Shown: positions 2 to 19,514, counted from the first letter of the stretch. The stretch is 64,000 bases of DNA from a virus (IMGVR_UViG_3300036802_000112:110194-174193), one strand, 5' to 3'. Notes: generated by a model not told the origin, from the letters alone. Program-made: numbers and translations.

Positions 2-268
2 TATAATATGGTATTGGAACATAGATTAACAGAACTACAGGCCACGTTATATCCAGATGATGTTTATGAAGGGAAGCCAGGACAAGCGTATTCTCCAACC
101 GTCCTTCCTGATTACGTGACAGCAGATTTACAGCAATACATACATATGGAGCCTGTAACTTTAGAAGACGTAGAATCATGTTTAGAATGTTATCACTTGT
201 TCTTCATTAGGGAAGAAAGAGATTATCAAAATGAATATATTAACCCAATTATATTAGAGGTGTGGTAG
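2..268 (+). CDS. EVW-family acidic protein #1 (probably 5'-truncated by window edge)
   Basis: Frame is open from position 2; ends ...EDVESCLECYHLFF...YINPIILEVW*. Confidence 0.8.
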   Translation, partial: YNMVLEHRLTELQATLYPDDVYEGKPGQAYSPTVLPDYVTADLQQYIHMEPVTLEDVESCLECYHLFFIREERDYQNEYINPIILEVW

Positions 269-280
269 GGAGAGAATATT

Positions 281-682
281 ATGTTGCCAAACGTGTTAGT
301 TGAACATTCGGAGTTGTTAATTAATGATATGCAAATGTTTATATTTCAAGAATATAAATTGATTTGGGATGAATGTATATCGAAACGAAGAACGGAAGTT
401 CCTTCAATATATACGATTGCAGAACGCATTTACGAGGTTCTACAAGACAAAATCACAAAGCTGCTACAGGCTAAGTATACATTTAATATCGATAACTTCA
501 ACGAAGAAGATTTCCAAAAAACCGTGGCAATATATTCATTTTGGTTTGACCAAAAGACAGAAGGTAATGATTACATATTTGAATCTTTACTTCATGAAAT
601 GACTAAATTTTTCTGTTTGCATCAATTATTTCACGAAAGGGATGGGGAGTTAATAAATCAACCTATCTTGGAGGTGTGGTGA
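281..682 (+). CDS. EVW-family acidic protein #2
   Basis: GGAGAG RBS; ends LINQPILEVW*. Confidence 0.85.
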   Translation: MLPNVLVEHSELLINDMQMFIFQEYKLIWDECISKRRTEVPSIYTIAERIYEVLQDKITKLLQAKYTFNIDNFNEEDFQKTVAIYSFWFDQKTEGNDYIFESLLHEMTKFFCLHQLFHERDGELINQPILEVW

Positions 683-684
683 TA

Positions 685-1050
685 TTGTATGAACTGATAA
701 ACCCATTGGATGTTATCGGTAACTTAGCTTATGTAGCGCTTAATTCAACGTATTTATTTATCGTTTCGGAAAGATGTTATAACCCAAATCATATACCTAC
801 GATTGAAATGATTCACAATCACTTTGTGGATCATTTCATTCAAGAGTTAGTGTTAGAAGTTATACAAAGAGAAAGTTTCGAAACATTAGGTGCTGATGAT
901 TTAGACGACTTCTTACATCAAGTTAAGAACAAAAAATACCATCCGTTTATACCTGACATTATTGAACTACGAAATATGTTAGAAGCATGTTATATGACTT
1001 TTATAGAGGACGGTGAAGTTCATAATCCAATTATTGTGGAGGTGTGGTGA
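685..1050 (+). CDS. EVW-family acidic protein #3
   Basis: Probable TTG start (MYEL) 8 nt after GGAGGTG at 670-676; ends VHNPIIVEVW*. Confidence 0.85.
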   Translation: MYELINPLDVIGNLAYVALNSTYLFIVSERCYNPNHIPTIEMIHNHFVDHFIQELVLEVIQRESFETLGADDLDDFLHQVKNKKYHPFIPDIIELRNMLEACYMTFIEDGEVHNPIIVEVW

Positions 1051-1469
1051 TGTATCAACTTATACATCAGAATGACCGGAAAAAGAGCGCTTTAGAAGAA
1101 TCAGCAGAAGCCATATTTTATTCAGTATACGGAGAGTTAGGAGAAGCAATACTGGATGAATTGTTTGGAGATTACCCGTATATCTTTATAGGGGATTTAG
1201 TAGATAAAGTGTATCAAGAATTGTATTTCGAGGAATACACAAACTTAATAGATGAATCAATCTTGAGAGGTGATCACGAAATATATGCACTATCAAAAGA
1301 TGATTATACATTACAAGTATACGGAGGAAATATCGGTTTATATTATGAACCTGCTTTTGAAGTGTCTGATATAAAAACAATGATAAGTCAAATGTTGTGC
1401 GAACAGAACATAGCATACTTAGATTATGACTTCACGATGCAAAATGAAATTATATTAGAGGTGTGGTAA
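1050..1469 (+). CDS. EVW-family acidic protein #4
   Basis: TGATG overlap; starts MYQL; ends MQNEIILEVW*. Confidence 0.85.
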   Translation: MYQLIHQNDRKKSALEESAEAIFYSVYGELGEAILDELFGDYPYIFIGDLVDKVYQELYFEEYTNLIDESILRGDHEIYALSKDDYTLQVYGGNIGLYYEPAFEVSDIKTMISQMLCEQNIAYLDYDFTMQNEIILEVW

Positions 1470-1933
1470 TGGTCAATGTAAATGAATTAATGCTTATGAA
1501 TCCAGATGACATTGTAGGTATTATGGATGCTATGAATTTAATAACAAAGGAGACATTCGATAGGTTCGTCACGTTATTAACACATTGGTACAAAAGAGAA
1601 TCACTGATGGAAGATAACATTCCAAATTTATTTCCAATCTTCCAGATGACAGATCCAATCATAGACGACTTATGCGAAATATTTATAGAGAGTATAGGGT
1701 GGAGGGAGTTGGGAGAACAACAGATGACTCATGAATTCGAACGGAATCCGGAAGACAAACTAATTATCAAGAATCAATTTGTCGATGGTTACGATTCGGT
1801 ATATTCAACAAACATGGTCAGGGATACAGAACGAGTTTTTAATTCTATGAACCTTGTACATAGATGGGATTCTACATATGTAGGAGGTAAAGATAACTTA
1901 GTAACAGGAGGAGTTGTATTAGAAGTATGGTAG
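1469..1933 (+). CDS. EVW-family acidic protein #5
   Basis: TAATG overlap; HWY...IPNLF motif; ends TGGVVLEVW*. Confidence 0.85.
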   Translation: MVNVNELMLMNPDDIVGIMDAMNLITKETFDRFVTLLTHWYKRESLMEDNIPNLFPIFQMTDPIIDDLCEIFIESIGWRELGEQQMTHEFERNPEDKLIIKNQFVDGYDSVYSTNMVRDTERVFNSMNLVHRWDSTYVGGKDNLVTGGVVLEVW

Positions 1934-2364
1934 GTACATATGCATTATCAGTAGAAACGGAAGAAATAGAATACGATGTAATCAAACCACAATACGTATC
2001 ATGGTTTGAAAGGGTAATTATGAATTGGTATCAAGAGTTCGGTAGGTTAACCCCCAAATACCTACCGACTGTTGTGGATATTTTAGATGATAGCCTTCAT
2101 CCAATAGGTGGAACTGCATCAGAAGCATTCGCTCTTTTAGAACAATCTGTTCAAGTTGAGTTTTGTGGTATTGATACATTTCCAGAAGACTTAGGGAATT
2201 GGACAGATGACCACTACTTATACTTTGAAGACCAAGTGGATTTAACTGATTACGAAGTAGATTTATTTAAAGATATAGAGAAACTGTTAGAAACGAAAGG
2301 ATTAACATACTCTAGATATAACCCCGAAACAGCGCAAGTATCAAGTGTAATCGAGGTGTGGTAA
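1927..2364 (+). CDS. EVW-family acidic protein #6
   Basis: Starts MVGTYAL; NWY...LPT; KDIEKLLETKGLTY; ends SSVIEVW*. Confidence 0.85.
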   Translation: MVGTYALSVETEEIEYDVIKPQYVSWFERVIMNWYQEFGRLTPKYLPTVVDILDDSLHPIGGTASEAFALLEQSVQVEFCGIDTFPEDLGNWTDDHYLYFEDQVDLTDYEVDLFKDIEKLLETKGLTYSRYNPETAQVSSVIEVW

Positions 2365-2813
2365 ATGTATCAATTAGCGGTTAATAATTACAGTGAAGTG
2401 CCATTTAAAATAGTAGATAAGGACCCGGGAACCGTGCAAGAATTCTTCTTTTTAATTTCTGGATTGTATCATGACTATTGTATGTGCAGAGAAGACCTCC
2501 CTAGTCCAAAAGACATGCTAGAAGAAGATCGTAATTTTTATCCAAAATCAAACGAAACAGTAAACGGATTTTTAGATGGTATGATTCATGAAATGATGCA
2601 TAGACGAAATACTTTCTTAGATGATTTTATAGAAGTATTACCAGAAGACGCGGACACTGATTCTTTAGCTGATTTTTTAGATGGATGTTGGGATGATATG
2701 AAGCCTTACTATGAGGATGAAATACGTATCGCATTAGAAGTACTAGGATACGCATATAAAGGCGAATGGGGAGAAGTAAGAAATACTTATGTAATCGAGG
2801 TGTGGTAAATGTA
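2346..2813 (+). repeat. 24-bp exact direct repeat TGTAATCGAGGTGTGGTAAATGTA flanking EVW gene #7
   Basis: Identical at 2346-2369 and 2790-2813. Confidence 0.95.
2365..2808 (+). CDS. EVW-family acidic protein #7
   Basis: Starts MYQL directly after TAA; ends VRNTYVIEVW*. Confidence 0.85.
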   Translation: MYQLAVNNYSEVPFKIVDKDPGTVQEFFFLISGLYHDYCMCREDLPSPKDMLEEDRNFYPKSNETVNGFLDGMIHEMMHRRNTFLDDFIEVLPEDADTDSLADFLDGCWDDMKPYYEDEIRIALEVLGYAYKGEWGEVRNTYVIEVW

Positions 2814-3177
2814 CGAGATACAAAAGACAGAGGTAGAATTCATCTTTGTGCCGGATGATTTCTACCACACTTTTAAAGATGTTATAAAAACGTGGTATGA
2901 AAATTTCGAATACTGTTTCCCGACACGGATACCAGAGGCACAAATATTTAGTATGGACTACCAAATTGGTTTCGAATTTGAAAGTGGCTTAATATGGTTT
3001 GCAGGTGCAATATTAGAAATTGCGGAACCAGACAATGAATTTGCTTCCATGCATGATTTAAGTGTAATGGAACAGATGTGGTTCGAAGAGGATATGCGTA
3101 CATTATTAGATGCAGAAAGTATCACTTATATGTACGACGGTGAACTTAAAAATAGTGTTATTTTGGAGGTATGGTAG
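2809..3177 (+). CDS. EVW-family acidic protein #8
   Basis: Starts MYEI; ends LKNSVILEVW*. Confidence 0.85.
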   Translation: MYEIQKTEVEFIFVPDDFYHTFKDVIKTWYENFEYCFPTRIPEAQIFSMDYQIGFEFESGLIWFAGAILEIAEPDNEFASMHDLSVMEQMWFEEDMRTLLDAESITYMYDGELKNSVILEVW

Positions 3178-3179
3178 GT

Positions 3180-3713
3180 ATGTATTTAAGTACAGAAGTA
3201 GCAAATCATGAATTTCAATTTTTCTGTTTAGAAACAAATTCAATAGAAGAAATCACGAAAGATCTTAGAGAAGTTTATAAGGCGATTGTGAAAGAGACTG
3301 ATAATGTACCAAACTTATTCGATATCAGATTGTATAGTTCAAACTTAATCAACTACGTCTTTTTTGAAAGAATCGCCTTAGGGAAGGAAAGTGCCTTAGA
3401 TTATTATACAGACGGAGAAGGTATTATAGAACACATACAAGATATCATGAAAAGCTATTCGAAAGAAGAATTTCATCATGGAATCGAAAGGTGTATACAA
3501 GAATTCCCAACATTAGAATCTACCGAGGATATAATAGAACTTTTCATGGTTGACGCTTTATATATATTCAATCTGAATCAGTGGAGGTACCACGATATAG
3601 AATGGTATCCTGCTTACAACATGTTGCTGCTATCGGATAAATTAGGAGACATTTTGAATTCGCAGGGTAAGGTAGAATTCGATGTTAACAATCCAATGAT
3701 AGAGGTGTGGTGA
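3180..3713 (+). CDS. EVW-family acidic protein #9
   Basis: ATG at 3180 (MYLS) after GGAGGT; VPNLF motif; ends VNNPMIEVW*. Confidence 0.85.
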   Translation: MYLSTEVANHEFQFFCLETNSIEEITKDLREVYKAIVKETDNVPNLFDIRLYSSNLINYVFFERIALGKESALDYYTDGEGIIEHIQDIMKSYSKEEFHHGIERCIQEFPTLESTEDIIELFMVDALYIFNLNQWRYHDIEWYPAYNMLLLSDKLGDILNSQGKVEFDVNNPMIEVW

Positions 3714-3714
3714 A

Positions 3715-4200
3715 ATGAATCAATTAACATTACTTTCGGATGTTAATCAAGTTATAGACTTCGACTTTTTCGAACACAAAGGAAATAAGTTGGAAGAATT
3801 CAAAGAAGAATTGTTGGGTTCCTATGAACAAGCTTGTGAGTATTGGGTTTATGATGAAGGAGAAGAACAACTTCCCACGCTTTCTGTTATAGGCGATATA
3901 GCTTGCAGGATGTATGTAGAAGAAATTGTGTTTAAATGTTATGCAGATGGATCTATAGCAGGGAATATAGATGTCAGAGAAAATATAGATGAACATCAAT
4001 GCGACCAATTAGATGAAATACAAGACTCTATCCATGATGAGTTCCATCATAATAGAAGTTTCGGAATGGGTATCGGTAACATAAGAGATTACTTCAATGA
4101 CATCGAAAAGTTATTGAACTTATGTAACTTAACATATAGAAAGGATGATGATAGAGCGAATATATGCAACGTTAATTCACATGTTGTGGAGGTTTGGTGA
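3715..4200 (+). CDS. EVW-family acidic protein #10
   Basis: Starts MNQL; NDIEKLLNLCNLTY; ends VNSHVVEVW*. Confidence 0.85.
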   Translation: MNQLTLLSDVNQVIDFDFFEHKGNKLEEFKEELLGSYEQACEYWVYDEGEEQLPTLSVIGDIACRMYVEEIVFKCYADGSIAGNIDVRENIDEHQCDQLDEIQDSIHDEFHHNRSFGMGIGNIRDYFNDIEKLLNLCNLTYRKDDDRANICNVNSHVVEVW

Positions 4201-4667
4201 TGTATCAATTACAGACTGATGTAAAGGAGTTTCCGTTACATTTTATACCGAAAGAAAAAACAGAAGCATTCATTAAGGCAATACTGTCTGCATACAAACG
4301 TATATATACAGTTATGAGTAAAGTGAGTGGAGTGAATTCATTCCATTACATAGAACCCTGGGGAGACATTGGCGTCTTTCTAGGGGATTTTTATGTAATG
4401 GGATGTTGCTATTACGAGACAGGAGAAGAGTATGCATACGAAAAAGCAGTAGCAAAAATAGATGCTATGGGAGATGATGGCGCATTCGAGTTAAGTGCAA
4501 TGTATAACGACGAGTGTTTTGAAGATTGGAGAAGTGAGTTCATTGATGATATCACAGCGGTTCTAGATATGCACAACTATTCATATTTCGATCCAGCTTC
4601 CGACCCGTACGCTGTCAATCTTGATTGTGTAGAAGTGAACAATACTCATATTATATCAGTATGGTAA
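4200..4667 (+). CDS. EVW-family acidic protein #11 (SVW variant)
   Basis: TGATG overlap; starts MYQL; ends VNNTHIISVW*. Confidence 0.85.
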   Translation: MYQLQTDVKEFPLHFIPKEKTEAFIKAILSAYKRIYTVMSKVSGVNSFHYIEPWGDIGVFLGDFYVMGCCYYETGEEYAYEKAVAKIDAMGDDGAFELSAMYNDECFEDWRSEFIDDITAVLDMHNYSYFDPASDPYAVNLDCVEVNNTHIISVW

Positions 4668-4681
4668 AGGAGAAGATAAAG

Positions 4682-5155
4682 ATGCAACAATTTATGTTAC
4701 CACAAAACTATGTTAGAGGTTATGATAACGCCCCTTATCGTTTGATATTCAATGTTCCAGAAGATGAGTTTAGAAAAGTTATGCGAGATATTTATATAGC
4801 TACTCACACAACGAACAGACCACCATACTTCGAAAGAATTTTATCGGAGCTTATTGAGATAGGTATGTTCTCTCGTGTGTTCTTAGAATACGCCAAAGAG
4901 AATCCTGAAAAATTCGATATGTCTATAAAACGCATAGATGAATTATATTATTGGGTGGTGGAGAAAGGTGTGAATGATGAATCAATTACACAAGAATTAT
5001 TAAGTTTTGCAGGGTATTACTTCTGCGAAGAGTTCGAAAACGATATCCGTATCTTCTTGAACGATTTTAATTACAGTTTTTTAGAAAGAGATTATCACCA
5101 TCAACATGCGGATGAAGCTGCAATTAGAAACTCATGTATTATCCCTGTTTGGTGA
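4682..5155 (+). CDS. EVW-family acidic protein #12 (PVW variant)
   Basis: Own AAGGAG RBS, ATG at 4682 (MQQFML); NDIRIFLNDFNYSF; ends IRNSCIIPVW*. Confidence 0.8.
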   Translation: MQQFMLPQNYVRGYDNAPYRLIFNVPEDEFRKVMRDIYIATHTTNRPPYFERILSELIEIGMFSRVFLEYAKENPEKFDMSIKRIDELYYWVVEKGVNDESITQELLSFAGYYFCEEFENDIRIFLNDFNYSFLERDYHHQHADEAAIRNSCIIPVW

Positions 5156-5204
5156 TATGTGAGTTTTTCTTTTTTAGTAGTGCACAGAGAAGGGGTCTTG
5201 CAAA

Positions 5205-5996
5205 ATGACATTAGCAATTAAAGACAGTAAATGGATTAAGCGTTTTGACGTCGCTAAACTATTAGAGGATTCTTTAGACATGTCGTATTGGAAAGGGGAT
5301 GATTGTACAAAAGGAGTTTTCTTTACAGATGAATACGGTTACGCATTAAATAAAGTAGTAGCTATACGAGTTCATCATGACGAAGATGCTCCAGAAGTCT
5401 TCTACTCATTTAATGAGAAGGATGACGAAGAATGTGGACCAGTCGTAACAGAGTATCCATATGAAGAGTTATCGTTATTACCTCGTAAACATCATTTACT
5501 ATTTGAGGATACAAAAGTAGAGAAGAAAAATCTAGACAAAGTATTCGAAAGAAAAGAGGTGTTAAAATCAATTCAAATTGAACCGAAAACAATTGTGGAG
5601 AAGATCGAAGAGGAAATTCCAAATAAACGTCAACGTGATCGAACACAGTTGAAAATAAAGGTTCGGGATAACGAAGTGTTGTTTGAAGCACATAAGAAAA
5701 AGAAAGTTACTTTTTCGGAAATCATTAAGTATGATACAATTACAACGCGAGACATTATTGAACTACAACAACCTACATATGATTTAAGTCATTGGGAGAC
5801 AGATAAAAAGACCAATGAAATAAACGGGGCAATCAATGCACATACGTTATGCTATTTACTTCATGTGTTTCAGGATTTTAATTCTGTATTTTTGCACTTT
5901 GAAGAAAATAGAGTTTTTATCGTAGGTAATCCAAATGATGTTAATATAAATGGAACGCCTACAATAGAAGTCGTTGTTAGTTTAATGAAGCTTTAA
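5205..5996 (+). CDS. Hypothetical protein, possibly a divergent sliding-clamp (DnaN-like) protein
   Basis: C-terminus AINAHTLCYLLHVF...VFLHF...VVVSLMKL resembles the beta-clamp C-terminal domain pattern; adjacent to primase-helicase. Confidence 0.35.
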   Translation: MTLAIKDSKWIKRFDVAKLLEDSLDMSYWKGDDCTKGVFFTDEYGYALNKVVAIRVHHDEDAPEVFYSFNEKDDEECGPVVTEYPYEELSLLPRKHHLLFEDTKVEKKNLDKVFERKEVLKSIQIEPKTIVEKIEEEIPNKRQRDRTQLKIKVRDNEVLFEAHKKKKVTFSEIIKYDTITTRDIIELQQPTYDLSHWETDKKTNEINGAINAHTLCYLLHVFQDFNSVFLHFEENRVFIVGNPNDVNINGTPTIEVVVSLMKL

Positions 5997-6019
5997 TGTG
6001 TTTTAGAGGAGGAAATGGT

Positions 6020-9000
6020 GTGAGTTGGTACAGTAAGGTTAATAAATATATAGATGATAACTTAATGGATTTCATCAAAGAGTTCTTCGGAGCGAATGCA
6101 AATACAGAGAAAATCGCCAGAGCTATTCGTGTTAGTCCTGCGCCATGTTGTGGTCATAACGATTGTTTCTCATTCGCAACTGAGAAAAATGCATTCAACT
6201 GTTTCTCTTGTAGAAAAAGCGGCAACAGAATTAAATCGTTGCAATACTTATTCGGTAATGAAAAAGACGCGAATAAGGCACTTTCTAAATGGGCAGGCGT
6301 TGAGTACCTAGAAGATCGTGTATATGACGAACAAACGAGAAAGAAAATGGAGAAGGAAGAAAGACTGCAAGAGTTATATAGAATTGCTATTCTCCATTAC
6401 ACGTTCCAAATGCAAGACGAAACGGAATCTACGGCTTTAGCTATGCAAACAGGGAAAGAGCATGGTTGTCGTAAACACCAACTTGATTTCCTAAAGAAAT
6501 ATAAAGTTGGGTATTCAAGTGGTTGGGACTTCCTTCGCAATGCATTAGAAAAATCACCGAAGGGCTTCACAAAAGAAGAAATAGAAGAAGCGAAAAGTTT
6601 CATCTCTATTCCAGAAGGATACTTTGTTTACCCTTATTATGATAAAGCAGGAAACTTAATTCGTATCAATACTAAATTGTTCGAAAGAAAATGTTTAGGT
6701 TCTTACGATAGAGATACAGGAAGGTATGGTTACGATTGTGGCTATAGAACAAAAGACCTTTCCAAGAAATCACGAGAAACACATGAGCATCTAAAGAAAC
6801 ATAAGATGGCCGGAGATGGTTTTTCACGCGGTGAGAAAACAAATGCATTTTACTTTGATCCAGAATCTATACAAAGAAAGCGATTCGCTATTCTTGTGGA
6901 AGGTGAAAATGATGTAATCTCGGCTGACGAAGAAATGGCAAATCTCCCTGAAAGTTATCGAAGAGATTTCGCTATCATCGGTTTAGGCGGTCAAATGGAT
7001 GAAGAAAGTTTTGAGAGTCTATTCCTTCGTCAATTCGAAAAGATTTATGAGTGTTTCGACCACGACGATGCAGGAGATAAATACAGAAATTTGTTAGATG
7101 AAAAACTACCTGACGTTCCTGTATACTCTATCCTATTCGATGACGATATCAATGATATCGATGCATGGCTTAAATCTCATTTGTATAATCCAGGTGATTT
7201 CAAAGATGCTATTGATAATGCAGCGTACAGAGATACAAAGCATTATATCATCGAACGAGAAACATCAAAGCACCATTGGAGATTAAAGAACAGACAATTC
7301 GAAATTACTTTCGATGTTTCCAAAGCGAATCATCAGAAAGGTACCATTGATGGAACAATCAGTGTTTACAAAGGCGGTCAACCTACGTTCAAGAAAACTG
7401 GAGATTTAATGAACACGAAGATTGACCCAGCTTTAAACACAACAAAATTGTTATTCGCAGAAGAAGTAGATAAGTATTACAACGATGTTGAGATGGTAGC
7501 GGATAAACCGAAGCGTTCGTATTGGGAACTGATTAATATATTTAAATACACAAGTAAACAAAACCAAGTCATTAGACAGTTAGCTTGGTACTTACATCAG
7601 AAAGATATAAAAGAATTCCAAGCTGCAGCATCAAAACTAGGTGCGTTAGGTCAAGAAGTGAAGGCACAAATTCTACAAGAAGTAAATTCTATAGAAAACC
7701 AACAGTTCGACCCAAACATTACACCGCCAATTATTACGTTATCTCAGTTCTTTAACATTCCAAACAATGACGCTTTCTTCTACTTCTCGAAAATTATTAA
7801 TGAAGAAGATGTTACGAAAGCTGTTCCTTGTTTAATAACAAACAAGAAAGAAGAAATCCGTTTGGACCTGATGAAGAAGAGTGATCCGCAAAGTATCTTG
7901 CTGATTAAAAATAAATATCAACTTCCAACTGAAGTTCCGATAACAATCATGAACCAAAATGAAGTTTCTTTACAACGTTATTGGGTAGAACGTTGGAAGA
8001 ATGAACAATTAGATCCTGCGGAGTATGACCCGTCTAAATTAATTAAAGAAATTGAAGATTTCATTAGAGGTTCGTATTACCTGCATGATGATACGTTAAA
8101 AGTATTATCGTTATGGATCTATTCAACATATTTCTATATGTTATTCCAAAGCGGATTCCCTTACTTATTAATCACCGGGGAAAAAGGAACGGGTAAATCA
8201 ACTGCCGATTTCCTAATCTACTTGTTATCTCTTAATCCTAAGTTTGCACTGCACATGTCGGAATCATCATTATTCCGTGCAATCAGTCAGCAGGGCGGAA
8301 CGTTTATCCTGGATGAGTTAGAGAACCTAACAGACAAGAAATCAGTTGATGGAAATGCATTTGCGACAATCCTAAAAGGTGGGTATTCTAACTTCGGTAG
8401 AATTTACAGAACAAATATGGAAAACGGTATTGCGATGATTGAGGAACATTCAGCGTTTGGCCCGAAAGTAATTTCAAACATCAACGGATTAGATGATGTA
8501 ATCGGTGACCGTTGTATCTTCATTAAAACTGCGCGTGCACCGGAATCGAAATTGAAATTCTTGAAAGACCCGCAAATTTATAGAGAGCAAGAACGTTCCA
8601 AAGCACACTCAATCACTTCGAGATGTGTAATATCAGCGTTAGAATACTTCCAAACTGTAAACGAAATTTACAACGATGCAAATAACAAAGTAATGACTGG
8701 TAATGCTCGTCTATCGCAAATCATCTTACCGTTAGTAGCGATGGCTAAATTTGTAGGTGGAGATTACGAAGAAGCTTTAATGCGATTCTACCGCGACGAT
8801 ATCGCACCTGTAAAAGAAGAGTTATCTGTTTCTACACAAGAGGGTATGGTTAAGAACATCTTGAAAATTGTTGCACAAGAGCTTACAGGTATCAGAGAAT
8901 CGAAATGGGCAACGAATGAAAAGATACACACGCATACTGTTCCAATCACATATCATCGTGAAACTGGCATATTTGAAATGGACTTACTGCACTTTATGGT

Positions 9001-9268
9001 ACTTGGTGAAGAATCGAATGACGGTATAGAACTTGAATTGAAATCTTTACGCAATACAATTAAGATGATATTCAAAAGCGCAACCGACTTTAAAAACAGT
9101 GCGACACCAAAGAATTTAACCATCCATGATGAGTCATTACAAAGAAGGTTAAATAATCAGAAGAACATCAGAACAACGTTATTTAGATTTAACGTCAACG
9201 ATTATCTGAGTGAATCAGAAAAGCAAACGTTGCATAATAACTCTGTTCCAGAAACATCACTATTCTAA
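6020..9268 (+). CDS. DNA primase-helicase fusion (Zn finger + TOPRIM + C-terminal P-loop NTPase)
   Basis: PCCGHNDC...FNCFSC zinc finger; ILVEGEND and CFDHDDAG TOPRIM motifs; Walker A GEKGTGKS, Walker B FILDE; GAGGAGG RBS before GTG at 6020. Confidence 0.85.
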   Translation: MSWYSKVNKYIDDNLMDFIKEFFGANANTEKIARAIRVSPAPCCGHNDCFSFATEKNAFNCFSCRKSGNRIKSLQYLFGNEKDANKALSKWAGVEYLEDRVYDEQTRKKMEKEERLQELYRIAILHYTFQMQDETESTALAMQTGKEHGCRKHQLDFLKKYKVGYSSGWDFLRNALEKSPKGFTKEEIEEAKSFISIPEGYFVYPYYDKAGNLIRINTKLFERKCLGSYDRDTGRYGYDCGYRTKDLSKKSRETHEHLKKHKMAGDGFSRGEKTNAFYFDPESIQRKRFAILVEGENDVISADEEMANLPESYRRDFAIIGLGGQMDEESFESLFLRQFEKIYECFDHDDAGDKYRNLLDEKLPDVPVYSILFDDDINDIDAWLKSHLYNPGDFKDAIDNAAYRDTKHYIIERETSKHHWRLKNRQFEITFDVSKANHQKGTIDGTISVYKGGQPTFKKTGDLMNTKIDPALNTTKLLFAEEVDKYYNDVEMVADKPKRSYWELINIFKYTSKQNQVIRQLAWYLHQKDIKEFQAAASKLGALGQEVKAQILQEVNSIENQQFDPNITPPIITLSQFFNIPNNDAFFYFSKIINEEDVTKAVPCLITNKKEEIRLDLMKKSDPQSILLIKNKYQLPTEVPITIMNQNEVSLQRYWVERWKNEQLDPAEYDPSKLIKEIEDFIRGSYYLHDDTLKVLSLWIYSTYFYMLFQSGFPYLLITGEKGTGKSTADFLIYLLSLNPKFALHMSESSLFRAISQQGGTFILDELENLTDKKSVDGNAFATILKGGYSNFGRIYRTNMENGIAMIEEHSAFGPKVISNINGLDDVIGDRCIFIKTARAPESKLKFLKDPQIYREQERSKAHSITSRCVISALEYFQTVNEIYNDANNKVMTGNARLSQIILPLVAMAKFVGGDYEEALMRFYRDDIAPVKEELSVSTQEGMVKNILKIVAQELTGIRESKWATNEKIHTHTVPITYHRETGIFEMDLLHFMVLGEESNDGIELELKSLRNTIKMIFKSATDFKNSATPKNLTIHDESLQRRLNNQKNIRTTLFRFNVNDYLSESEKQTLHNNSVPETSLF

Positions 9269-17936: not shown

Positions 17937-19514
17937 TTAGAATAGCATTTCGAGTGTCTTCATACTATTAGCGATTCCGCCAACAGTTGCTCTCAACCTA
18001 ACTCCTATTATATCACTAGGAACGTCTTTTATAACGCCTTCTGAACGTTCTTTTATTGATACATTAGGTATTTTATCCAACAATACCTCTTCCTTTGTAC
18101 CAGATTTAATACCGTACACCTCAACATCAGTCGTACCATCATTACTAGATTCAAACGATACCTTGTAACCAACTTTAGGTACTACCTCTACCTCCGCCTT
18201 TCTAGGGATGCGCGGAAAGGCGTGTTCAATGATTGTAACTGTCTCCGCAGGCTTATCGATTTCCTGGTCAAACTTTAATCCTGAATCAAACGCAAACCCT
18301 CTATCAGCATGAATGAATCGGTTTTTATCATAGAAAAAGTTCTTTGAATAATGGCCGCTTGTATCATACTTATCTAGTAAGGAACTACCCATCCACAAAT
18401 GCTCTGCCATTCCTATAGAAACCTTACTAACTTTAGCTGCATCCAAATGACGAAGTGTTTCTTCCACTGTTTTAATTTGTGTTCGTTGTACACTACTTCC
18501 AATTGCAATAGGTTCCATTAACGCTTTTACAAACGTAGCTTTTCTTGTATCTTCAAATTTACCTTTCTCTAAAACGGGTAAATGAATAATCTTCCCCGCC
18601 TTAAACGTAACAGGTATTGGATCAGTGCGGACGATATCGAAGAATACTGAGTAATCTGTGCCAGCTTGTTTCGTCTCATCTAATAAGAACAGCAGCATGT
18701 TTAGTCGCATCTTATCTTTGATTAAGACTTCTGGAAGTGTAGCGATAAACTTAGAAGGGGAAATCCATAAGTTATCGTAGTATTTCTTTTTCGCAGGAGA
18801 TAACGATTTAGAATACATATCCTGAATAACGAATGTTTCCCAACCGATAGCTTTACTAATACCTTCAGAGATTTCTTTGATGGTTAAATTACTCATAAGG
18901 GCATAATCTAATCCTTCTAAGTAGTCTCGGTATTTATACTTCGGAACTAAGCTACCTACTTCTACTTCGTATTCGGTGCCCCAGTTCTTCTCTAGAAGAC
19001 GTTCATCTATTTTGATTTGTAGAGCATGTAAATGAGTACGAACACGCTCATGCTGCATAATAAACTCAGGCATTAAATACAATTTATTGTCCCGAACAAA
19101 GTAGTGCTCATATAACTTTAGCGGTTCCTTTGCTATAAACGTAGTTTTCAATACCATCGAAACAACTTTCGCTTTTCTTAGATTTTCATCATGGAATTCG
19201 AACGTTGTGTATTTACCTCTTCGATCTAACGTATTTAACACTTCTTCAAATTCTAACTCACGAAGCAAGAAAGCCTCGTGAGTTGAATAGATGCAGTCAG
19301 CGATTTCGACTTTTGCATAAGGCATTGTGTACAAAGTGTGCGCAGTAGGGACAGAAGTATTAGCCATAACGTAACGATATTCGTATTCCACATATTCTAA
19401 TATCTTTTTGTAAATTTCCAACATCCCGCCTAACGACGGATCGTCAGGCATGTACGTTTTATAGAATGAACTCATTTGCCACAATGCATCATCTGTATCG
19501 TACGGCTTTTTCAT
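17937..19514 (-). CDS. Putative baseplate wedge protein
   Basis: Immediately downstream of the baseplate J-like gene; called by synteny. Confidence 0.5.
   Translation of the reverse strand: MKKPYDTDDALWQMSSFYKTYMPDDPSLGGMLEIYKKILEYVEYEYRYVMANTSVPTAHTLYTMPYAKVEIADCIYSTHEAFLLRELEFEEVLNTLDRRGKYTTFEFHDENLRKAKVVSMVLKTTFIAKEPLKLYEHYFVRDNKLYLMPEFIMQHERVRTHLHALQIKIDERLLEKNWGTEYEVEVGSLVPKYKYRDYLEGLDYALMSNLTIKEISEGISKAIGWETFVIQDMYSKSLSPAKKKYYDNLWISPSKFIATLPEVLIKDKMRLNMLLFLLDETKQAGTDYSVFFDIVRTDPIPVTFKAGKIIHLPVLEKGKFEDTRKATFVKALMEPIAIGSSVQRTQIKTVEETLRHLDAAKVSKVSIGMAEHLWMGSSLLDKYDTSGHYSKNFFYDKNRFIHADRGFAFDSGLKFDQEIDKPAETVTIIEHAFPRIPRKAEVEVVPKVGYKVSFESSNDGTTDVEVYGIKSGTKEEVLLDKIPNVSIKERSEGVIKDVPSDIIGVRLRATVGGIANSMKTLEMLF

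Follow-up and report, generated by a model that had tools for sequence, protein, structure and literature searches.

In the virus genome IMGVR_UViG_3300036802_000112, a complete record of 174,193 bp with direct terminal repeats and 37% G+C, the final 64 kb (genome 110194-174193; this whole 64,000-nucleotide stretch is called the window below) opens with a run of tandem genes whose products all finish on the same two residues. Twelve such genes, all on the + strand and the first of them truncated by the window start, lie in the initial 5.2 kb and end (E/S/P)-V-W-stop, with the codons of the tail sitting directly ahead of the next gene in most cases. This raises the question of whether the tail is kept for the sake of the protein, or for the sake of an RNA in which the same bases could serve as the Shine-Dalgarno (SD) site of the gene that follows. 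We consider it probable, at about 0.82, that both apply and that the tail codons are under two layers of selection, one for the SD of the next gene and one for a conserved peptide.

Tail codons as candidate Shine-Dalgarno sites

When the window is read together with the genome upstream of it, the array totals 14 genes, not 12 (genome 109338-115348), with two full copies and the start of copy 3 lying ahead of the window (genome 109338-110193). An earlier interpretation made from the window alone (the sequence-only reading) had numbered the copy ending S-V-W as gene 11, where it is actually the 13th. Its coordinates and codons were all correct, and its statements that EVW is mostly written GAG GTG, that the copy lacking E has a separate SD after its stop, and that the last gene keeps IIPVW uncoupled are each borne out by the junctions described here. 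GAG GTG TGG followed by a stop is found at 257, 671, 1039, 1458, 2353, 2797 and 3702, with the variants GAA GTA TGG at 1922, GAG GTA TGG at 3166 and GAG GTT TGG at 4189. Glu is encoded by GAG in 10 of 12 tails compared with 24% genome-wide (p=2.6e-5), and Val by GTG in 7 of 14 compared with 15% (p=0.002), the background being taken from 150 long open reading frames (ORFs) of this genome.

Nine of the 13 internal junctions have the next start at 0 to +4 nt past the stop and two have it at -6, inside the Val-Trp codons; the remaining two starts lie 13 and 15 nt downstream, each with its own SD. A GGAGGTG, GAGGTG or GGAGGT core is positioned 5-9 nt ahead of the next start, and the anti-SD duplexes at the 13 junctions range from -6.4 to -13.1 kcal/mol, with 12 of them at or below -8.5, values that assume a Firmicute-type anti-SD. 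As a control we examined 40 other tight gene junctions of this genome, and these have tails rich in G, E, K and R, which is a general footprint of an intragenic SD, but 0/40 end in W.

Following the array through the window, copy 3 is present as its 3' part (1-268), ending ILEVW with GAG GTG TGG TAG at 257-268, and its likeliest start is an ATG within a GTATGG at genome 110060. Copy 4 (281-682, 133 amino acids) also ends ILEVW, and its GGAGGTG at 670-676 serves the TTG at 685, the most likely start of copy 5 (685-1050, 121 amino acids). Copy 5 ends IVEVW and overlaps copy 6 (1050-1469, 139 amino acids, ending ILEVW) through TGATG at 1050, and copy 6 overlaps copy 7 (1469-1933, 154 amino acids) through TAATG at 1469. 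The tail of copy 7 is an atypical T-G-G-V-V-L-E-V-W finishing GAA GTA TGG, where GTATGG holds the ATG (1927) that is the sole in-frame start candidate for copy 8 near this junction, and the SD of copy 8 is likely GGAGGA at 1907-1912, drawn from the two Gly codons of that tail. Copy 8 (1927-2364, 145 amino acids) and copy 9 (2365-2808, 147 amino acids) both end VIEVW and run into the next gene through TAA-ATG, at 2365 and 2809, respectively. Copy 10 (2809-3177, 122 amino acids) ends ILEVW as GAG GTA TGG; copy 11 (3180-3713, 177 amino acids) ends MIEVW and has an alternative start, ATG 3171, inside that GTATGG; and copy 12 (3715-4200, 161 amino acids) ends VVEVW as GAG GTT TGG, with a TGATG overlap at 4200. 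Copy 13 (4200-4667, 155 amino acids) ends IISVW, with TCA GTA TGG at 4656 and its own SD, AAGGAG, at 4667-4672 before the ATG at 4682. The last copy, 14 (4682-5155, 157 amino acids), ends IIPVW at 5141-5155 (CCT GTT TGG TGA) with no coupled downstream gene, the next start being 50 nt on. Ambiguous starts in this series are 685 versus 676/679, 3180 versus 3171, and 4682 versus 4661.

What the RNA and the protein appear to hold across 104 junctions

A search of 1.84 billion representative proteins with a profile built from the 14 copies gave 55 matches, of which ~44 are foreign and nearly all of these end N-x-x-[VIL]-x-x-[VI]-W, and DNA was compared from eight further lineages. L002 and L023 carry 14 copies each, with a primase 59% identical to that of this genome; L026 and L028 also carry 14 each, L027 and L007 11 each, L024 12 and L003 at least 10, and L005 is represented by fragments. 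The resulting junction table holds 104 family junctions from nine lineages, with L002 and L023 not both counted, and uses start codons from the depositors' gene caller for seven lineages and our own assignment for this genome and L024. Junctions were classed as coupled when the next start lies -3 to +9 nt from the stop (n=68) and all others as not coupled (n=36), the latter comprising 19 in which the SD follows or spans the stop or no gene is close, and 17 with the next start inside the Val-Trp codons.

[V/I]-W-stop is present in 104/104 junctions. Where position -3 (W being -1) is E, K or Q, the ratio of NAG to NAA codons is 57:1 in coupled junctions versus 3:11 in those not coupled (Fisher p=1.4e-9), and at -4 the corresponding ratios are 21:1 and 2:10 (p=5e-6). 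Of the 68 coupled junctions, 65 have E, G, K, Q or R as the -3 residue itself, compared with 7 of the 19 that have a separate SD or no close gene. Likewise, Ile at -2 is found in 0/68 coupled junctions and in seven of the 36 not coupled, six of these among the 19 with a separate SD or no close gene and one among the 17 with an embedded start. This trend in codon and residue runs in the same direction in every lineage with data, and is reproduced in the seven lineages whose starts came independently from a gene caller.

The individual lineages show how the tail accommodates the position of the SD. Tails in L024 read G-[K/Q/E/R]-V-W with AAG, CAG, GAG or AGG, and its last copy has GGG AAA GTA. 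L-Q-E-V-W is written CAG GAG GT in L027 and L028, changing to CAA GAA, CAA ACT or CAA AGC where the SD is elsewhere, and in L007, where most SDs span the stop (TGG TAG GAGG), position -3 is S, N or D and -2 is Ile in 6 of 11 copies. In other lineages -3 can be K (AAG), Q (CAG) or R (AGG), becoming N, S, D, P, A or T where the SD lies past the stop. Between this genome and L002, orthologues differ at -3 in 8 of 14 pairs and VW changes in none; six of these eight swaps at -3 are of E to G (GAG-G to GGA-G or GGG-G), with a GGAG-type core kept. In the last copies of seven complete arrays VW is always retained, and -3 is P, A, N, K, E, S or N. The full tail motif is N-x-P-[VI]-x-x-[VI]-W, and among 94 family sequences N(-8) is found in 86, V/I(-5) in 81, and V/I(-2) and W(-1) in all 94.

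From these sequence statistics and the comparative pattern we infer that translation is coupled through the SDs. Positions -4 and -3, and also the third base of -2, appear to be set mainly by the SD of the next gene, with -3 looking almost wholly RNA-driven and the use of Val over Ile at -2 seemingly biased by the SD. VW appears to be held by the protein, because uncoupled and terminal copies keep it with P, A, N, S or T at -3, and the residues that the protein appears to own are N(-8), P(-6), [VI](-5), [VI](-2) and W(-1). In the mechanism that we propose, these five positions would be kept by selection on the peptide, while in the RNA layer a start a few bases from the stop would draw on the unconstrained bases, those of codons -4 and -3 and the last base of codon -2. 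The recruited bases would then spell a strong Firmicute-type SD (GGAGGTG, AGGAGGT or GGnAAGGTG) ~5-9 nt before the start, and its use would determine which codon (NAG, GTG) and which residue (E, G, K, Q or R) stand there.

The sequence-only reading had anticipated much of this. Its view of V-W as probably a protein-level constraint agrees with the invariance of [V/I]-W at all junctions, and the check it had proposed, conservation of the last codons across homologues including array-terminal copies, gave VW kept and a residue and codon at -3 that track the next start; random loss of VW from terminal copies, the outcome that it had set against itself, occurred 0 times in the seven complete arrays. 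It had suggested that E may be partly RNA-driven, a claim that was right in direction and too cautious in view of the codon ratios at -3. Synonymous variants do keep the peptide, as it had said, but instead of simply weakening the SD, GTA-TGG builds the ATG of the next gene with an SD sitting further upstream. Finally, it had suggested that each cassette carries the translation signal of its successor so that duplications or reshuffles stay expressed; an SD is indeed located in the tail, but the purpose finds no support, as the arrays are 1:1 collinear with no recent duplication or shuffling seen.

Several points weigh against our interpretation. Two coupled junctions have S at -3 with a weak SD-like sequence, so the rule has exceptions. 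The anti-SD, at the 3' end of the host's 16S ribosomal RNA, was assumed to be of Firmicute type, and the starts of this genome and of L024 were chosen partly by SD strength, which is mildly circular. In addition, some start codons are ambiguous, and junctions within one array and among close relatives are not fully independent.

Junctions where the tail may carry another signal

Every GT[A/G/T]-TGG (e.g. window 1925-1930, 3169-3174 and 4659-4664) contains an NTG start codon located 6 nt upstream of the end of the stop, and gene callers take it as the start in 17/104 junctions, giving proteins that begin M-V; start annotation in these arrays is therefore systematically ambiguous. When Val is GTA, the GTATGG would supply the next ATG and the SD would shift to codons -6 to -3. 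When the SD instead lies after or across the stop (e.g. TGG TAG GAGG), codons -4 and -3 would be freed, allowing NAA as well as N, S, D, T, P or A.

At the tail of the last copy, terminator-like hairpins with a T-run were found in three lineages (window 5126-5178, L002:7661-7698 and L026:6042-6086), differing in sequence but with stems kept, and with the 5' arm and loop formed by tail codons. The one in the window, on the + strand, overlaps the end of copy 14 and has an 18-bp stem followed by a T-run (z = -3.7), its 5' arm and loop being the last ten sense codons of that copy. Three of the four last-copy tails folded form such a hairpin, with none in L027. Depending on where it stands in the array, one peptide tail thus seems to share its codons with an SD, a start codon or a terminator.

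The array genes, their operon and their predicted fold

The 14 paralogues are ~21% identical to one another, with conservation at an M-Y-x-L near the N-terminus, at a single Tyr and a single Pro and in the C-terminal block, and all are acidic (pI 4.0-4.8). Orphan copies were sought with a family hidden Markov model (HMM) against all ORFs of the genome, and none was found beyond the 14. The search gave one marginal match, an ORF at genome 99734-100336 (L001:61-336; E=0.005 over two partial stretches), which has no VW tail, ends E-G-G-S-L with an SD in the tail, and is probably a chance match. The arrays of this genome and L002 are 1:1 collinear orthologues of 37-65% identity, and the ratio of nonsynonymous to synonymous change (dN/dS) between L002 and L023 is 0.02-0.15 for all 14 array genes. 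From this comparison the array genes appear old and individually conserved under purifying selection, and not recently expanding or shuffling cassettes. A fast-evolving arms-race family was also considered and rejected, as the orthologues are as conserved as the flanking genes and have these low dN/dS values.

Every complete locus has the same order, with a head gene of 340-390 amino acids, the array, a gene of 236-267 amino acids and a Toprim primase of ~1,020-1,090 amino acids; the L026 contig starts inside the array, hence its head gene is off the contig. In this genome the head gene (347 amino acids; genome 108295-109338, L001:8295-9338) lies just upstream of the window and abuts copy 1. 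It ends R-G-K-V-W-T-P, with AAGGTGTGG serving as the copy 1 SD via a TGATG overlap, and its relatives end GKVLTV, GKVVTK, RGRIWIP or GKILEV. Between it and a gene of 169 amino acids is a perfect 14-bp palindromic hairpin with T-runs on both strands (genome 108221-108252, L001:8221-8252), which is a bidirectional terminator. This upstream terminator, the hairpin at copy 14, and promoter-like sites within the array that are fewer than in shuffled sequence together point to one 15-gene operon, comprising the head gene and 14 ancient paralogues between two terminators. An Rfam search of the operon gave no family. Wider searches gave no match in INPHARED phages to the array (megablast) or the primase (tblastn), and no related locus when the whole primase was used; a primase zinc-finger profile with a metagenome scan returned only distant primases (L010-L022), without arrays.

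The protein family is uncharacterised, with no Pfam, PHROG or PDB-sequence match: Pfam gave none over threshold for 10 copies, PHROGs nothing below E=0.005 for 94 family members, and the top match of a PDB profile search was a designed helical protein at E=0.025. Only Y30, P42, N115, V121 and W122 are near-invariant in the 94 sequences. The better of our two structure models, an AlphaFold (AF2) model of copy 10 built from the 94 aligned sequences, has a predicted local distance difference test score (pLDDT) of 85.9 and a predicted template modelling score (pTM) of 0.78, and shows three long helices, the first followed by a beta-bridge, with a C-terminal hairpin and then a tail without regular structure, DSSP assigning no strand or helix at residues 115-122. 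Confidence is ~90-95 in helices 1 and 3 and 87 at residues 111-120, and falls to 70 in the last two residues, the lowest of the C-terminal half.

Foldseek against PDB and BFVD gave no match with E below 0.7 for either model, an ESM Atlas search with copy 10 gave no usable match, and VIA-align over 48,161 chains had a best Z of 5.1, below the level that the tool treats as meaningful. Weak winged-helix matches (Z 3.4-4.7) were to ScpA, Stn1, E2F-DP and the Spo11/Topo VI-A CAP-like domain, and the order of elements in the copy 10 model is helix, bridge, helix, helix, hairpin compared with H1-S1-H2-H3-S2-S3 in a winged helix. DNA-mimic anti-restriction proteins of the Ocr or ArdA type were considered and dropped, acidity being the sole resemblance, with no support from fold or family.

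Why the tail is kept, and other accounts of its codons

Selection on the peptide could have one of several reasons. One possibility, to which we would give about one chance in three, is clamp docking, where N-x-P-[VI]-x-x-[VI]-W-COOH of the 14 proteins, as clients or adaptors, would plug into a hydrophobic pocket of one or more phage sliding-clamp-like proteins; this would account for the conservation of VW and is compatible with the dual-coding explanation. The conserved positions -8, -5, -2 and -1 match the 1-4-7-8 register of the PCNA-interacting peptide (PIP) box, with -7, -4 and -3 free, although this match was spotted post hoc, position 1 is N and not Q, and position 7 is aliphatic and not aromatic. 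An extreme C-terminal position is likewise seen in archaeal PIPs and in the gp45-binding tail of T4 gp43, and V121 and W122 are the most conserved residues yet have a pLDDT of only 70, as expected of a linear motif. The nine ESM Atlas structural neighbours listed for the head gene are all sliding clamps (PCNA, beta clamp, Hus1 and Rad9), and the order of clamp-like gene, array, following gene and primase is the one kept in every complete locus.

The template modelling (TM) scores of the head gene against these clamps are, however, 0.59-0.63 only when normalised by the targets of 244-252 amino acids, and 0.45-0.48, under 0.5, by the query. Furthermore, no sequence method detects a clamp: the head gene matches nothing in Pfam or among PDB sequences, the Pfam families PCNA_N, gp45-slide_C and DNA_pol3_beta had no match even at E=10, and PDB profile searches found nothing. 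Nor is a clamp loader or DNA polymerase recognised in the genome, a six-frame Pfam search of the whole of it giving no PCNA, gp45, beta clamp, DNA_pol3_delta2, AAA clamp loader, PolA, PolB or Pol III alpha. A broader version, to which we give much the same odds, would be a private clamp-and-client system, with one or two highly divergent phage sliding clamps beside a primase-helicase and 9-14 ancient acidic paralogues docking by a non-canonical PIP-like tail, whose free positions 5 and 6 would now serve the translation signals of the following gene.

A role within the protein itself or between its subunits is, by our estimate, about as likely as docking on a clamp, some other partner accounting for the remainder. 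Here the tail would belong to the protein's own fold or to an oligomer interface, with W packing on the invariant Tyr of helix 1 and the Pro that follows. The co-conservation of Y30, P42, N115, V121 and W122 fits this, as scattered co-conserved residues often cluster in three dimensions, and residues 111-120 are modelled with good confidence (87) though outside regular secondary structure. The last two residues are nevertheless those modelled with least confidence in the C-terminal half, and DSSP gives the stretch from 115 to 122 neither strand nor helix.

It is very improbable that the GAG/GTG bias is simply left over from a junction cassette that recently duplicated or underwent gene conversion, with no ongoing selection on the SD. 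Short direct repeats of 19-36 nt do occur at the junctions, including one 24-nt junction that is identical at window 2346-2369 and 2790-2813, but DNA similarity is confined to the junction and stops there. Synonymous sites are saturated given the ~21% identity of paralogues and 37-65% identity of orthologues, the bias is absent from uncoupled junctions of the same arrays, and orthologues swap GAG-G for GGA-G or AAG-G, with the SD kept and the residue changed. Least credible, and by these data already largely refuted, is that V-W is an RNA artefact in which TGG and GTN are only a spacer, SD extension or embedded start and the peptide is unselected: an NTG at -6 in every GT[A/G/T]-TGG, apparently used in 17/104 junctions, and a W codon forming part of stop-spanning SDs in some lineages, as TGGTAGGAGG, would suit it, but VW is kept in last copies whose next gene is 30-52 nt off and whose GTT or GTA does not extend a GGAGG-type core, and in 19/19 junctions with a separate downstream SD, while 40 other tight junctions solve the same RNA problem without W, and N(-8), P(-6) and [VI](-5), outside the SD, are also conserved.

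Flanking genes and replication context

The array is followed by a gene of 263 amino acids (window 5205-5996, +), which has a counterpart after the array in every complete array locus examined (236-267 amino acids). It is 28-74% identical across four aligned relatives and ends V-V-V-S-L-M-K-L, and Pfam and PDB-profile searches with it found no family match. Comparison of the 347- and 263-amino acid families using hhalign showed no similarity, and iterated protein searches with both flanking genes returned clade members only, without Pfam labels. Next is a Toprim/zinc-ribbon primase with a P-loop domain (window 5996-9268, +, 1090 amino acids), the syntenic anchor of the cluster. The genome also has several helicases, SbcCD-like genes and a DnaJ along with this primase, despite having no recognised replicase; the phage either has a highly divergent one or depends on that of its host.

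A separate tail was observed in this genome, where five ORFs of at least 100 amino acids end x-L-F-COOH (ELF, ELF, SLF, QLF and MLF) compared with ~0.8 expected by chance. These are the primase, whose C-terminus is at window 9254-9268, and the ORFs at genome 67890-68420, 69318-70223 and 29531-30025 (-) and window 17937-19514 (-). The conserved primase tail is P-E-x-S-L-F, with the F invariant in three lineages and L024 ending E-V-L-F, and the four non-primase proteins gave no family match over threshold. By their sequence, the x-L-F tails may represent a second class of docking tail.

Discussion

Overlapping gene pairs, above all those of Firmicutes, normally have an SD within the 3' end of the first gene, as seen in a survey of 720 genomes (PMC6728339). 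The mechanism is therefore well documented and the array is a clean instance of it. Like the ATGA and TGATG coupled pairs in that survey, the array genes are co-directional with overlaps or gaps of -6 to +9 nt, they have a strong SD in the upstream 3' coding end in the Firmicute pattern of heavy SD use, and their synonymous codons and tail residues appear shaped by the signal of the downstream gene. Unlike those pairs, the SD here shares nine bases with a strictly conserved C-terminal peptide, 9-14 times per genome, and therefore the two constraints can be separated position by position. The array also differs in that its tail codons may double as a start codon (GTATGG) or terminator arm, and in that its coupling is deduced from the junctions themselves.

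The PIP-box has the form Q-x-x-psi-x-x-theta-theta, with positions 2, 5 and 6 free, and is C-terminal in archaea (PMC6881253). T4/RB69 gp43, gp33 and gp55 carry gp45-binding tails, that of T4 gp43 being at the very C-terminus (PMC6881253, PMC6212786). The array tail is likewise an eight-residue motif at the extreme C-terminus, with an amide at position 1, an aliphatic residue at 4, an aromatic at 8, and 2, 5 and 6 free; free positions 5 and 6 of the PIP-box are those recruited for the SD in the array tail. As with PIP-box clients, many different proteins share the tail, and a clamp-like gene is in the operon, adjoining the primase. The differences are N for Q at position 1, V/I for an aromatic at 7 so that W is the sole aromatic, and carriers that are 14 small acidic paralogues of no assigned activity and not enzymes; the clamp assignment here also comes from predicted-structure neighbours alone.

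It is rare to have over 100 natural replicates where a fixed peptide and, by our reading, an SD are encoded by the same nine bases. The array is in effect a natural experiment on how far an RNA signal can dictate a residue (E, G, K, Q or R at -3, and Val over Ile at -2), and it reveals which residues the protein retains regardless. This is of use in predicting gene starts in phages, in recoding or refactoring phage operons, since changes here that look silent would break expression, and in reading C-terminal motifs, where 'EVW' is really 'x-VW'. It also defines a strictly conserved, undescribed phage protein family at the replication module with a concrete partner hypothesis, and if a private clamp-and-client system proves true, both the class of clamp clients and the clamp-binding motif would be new.

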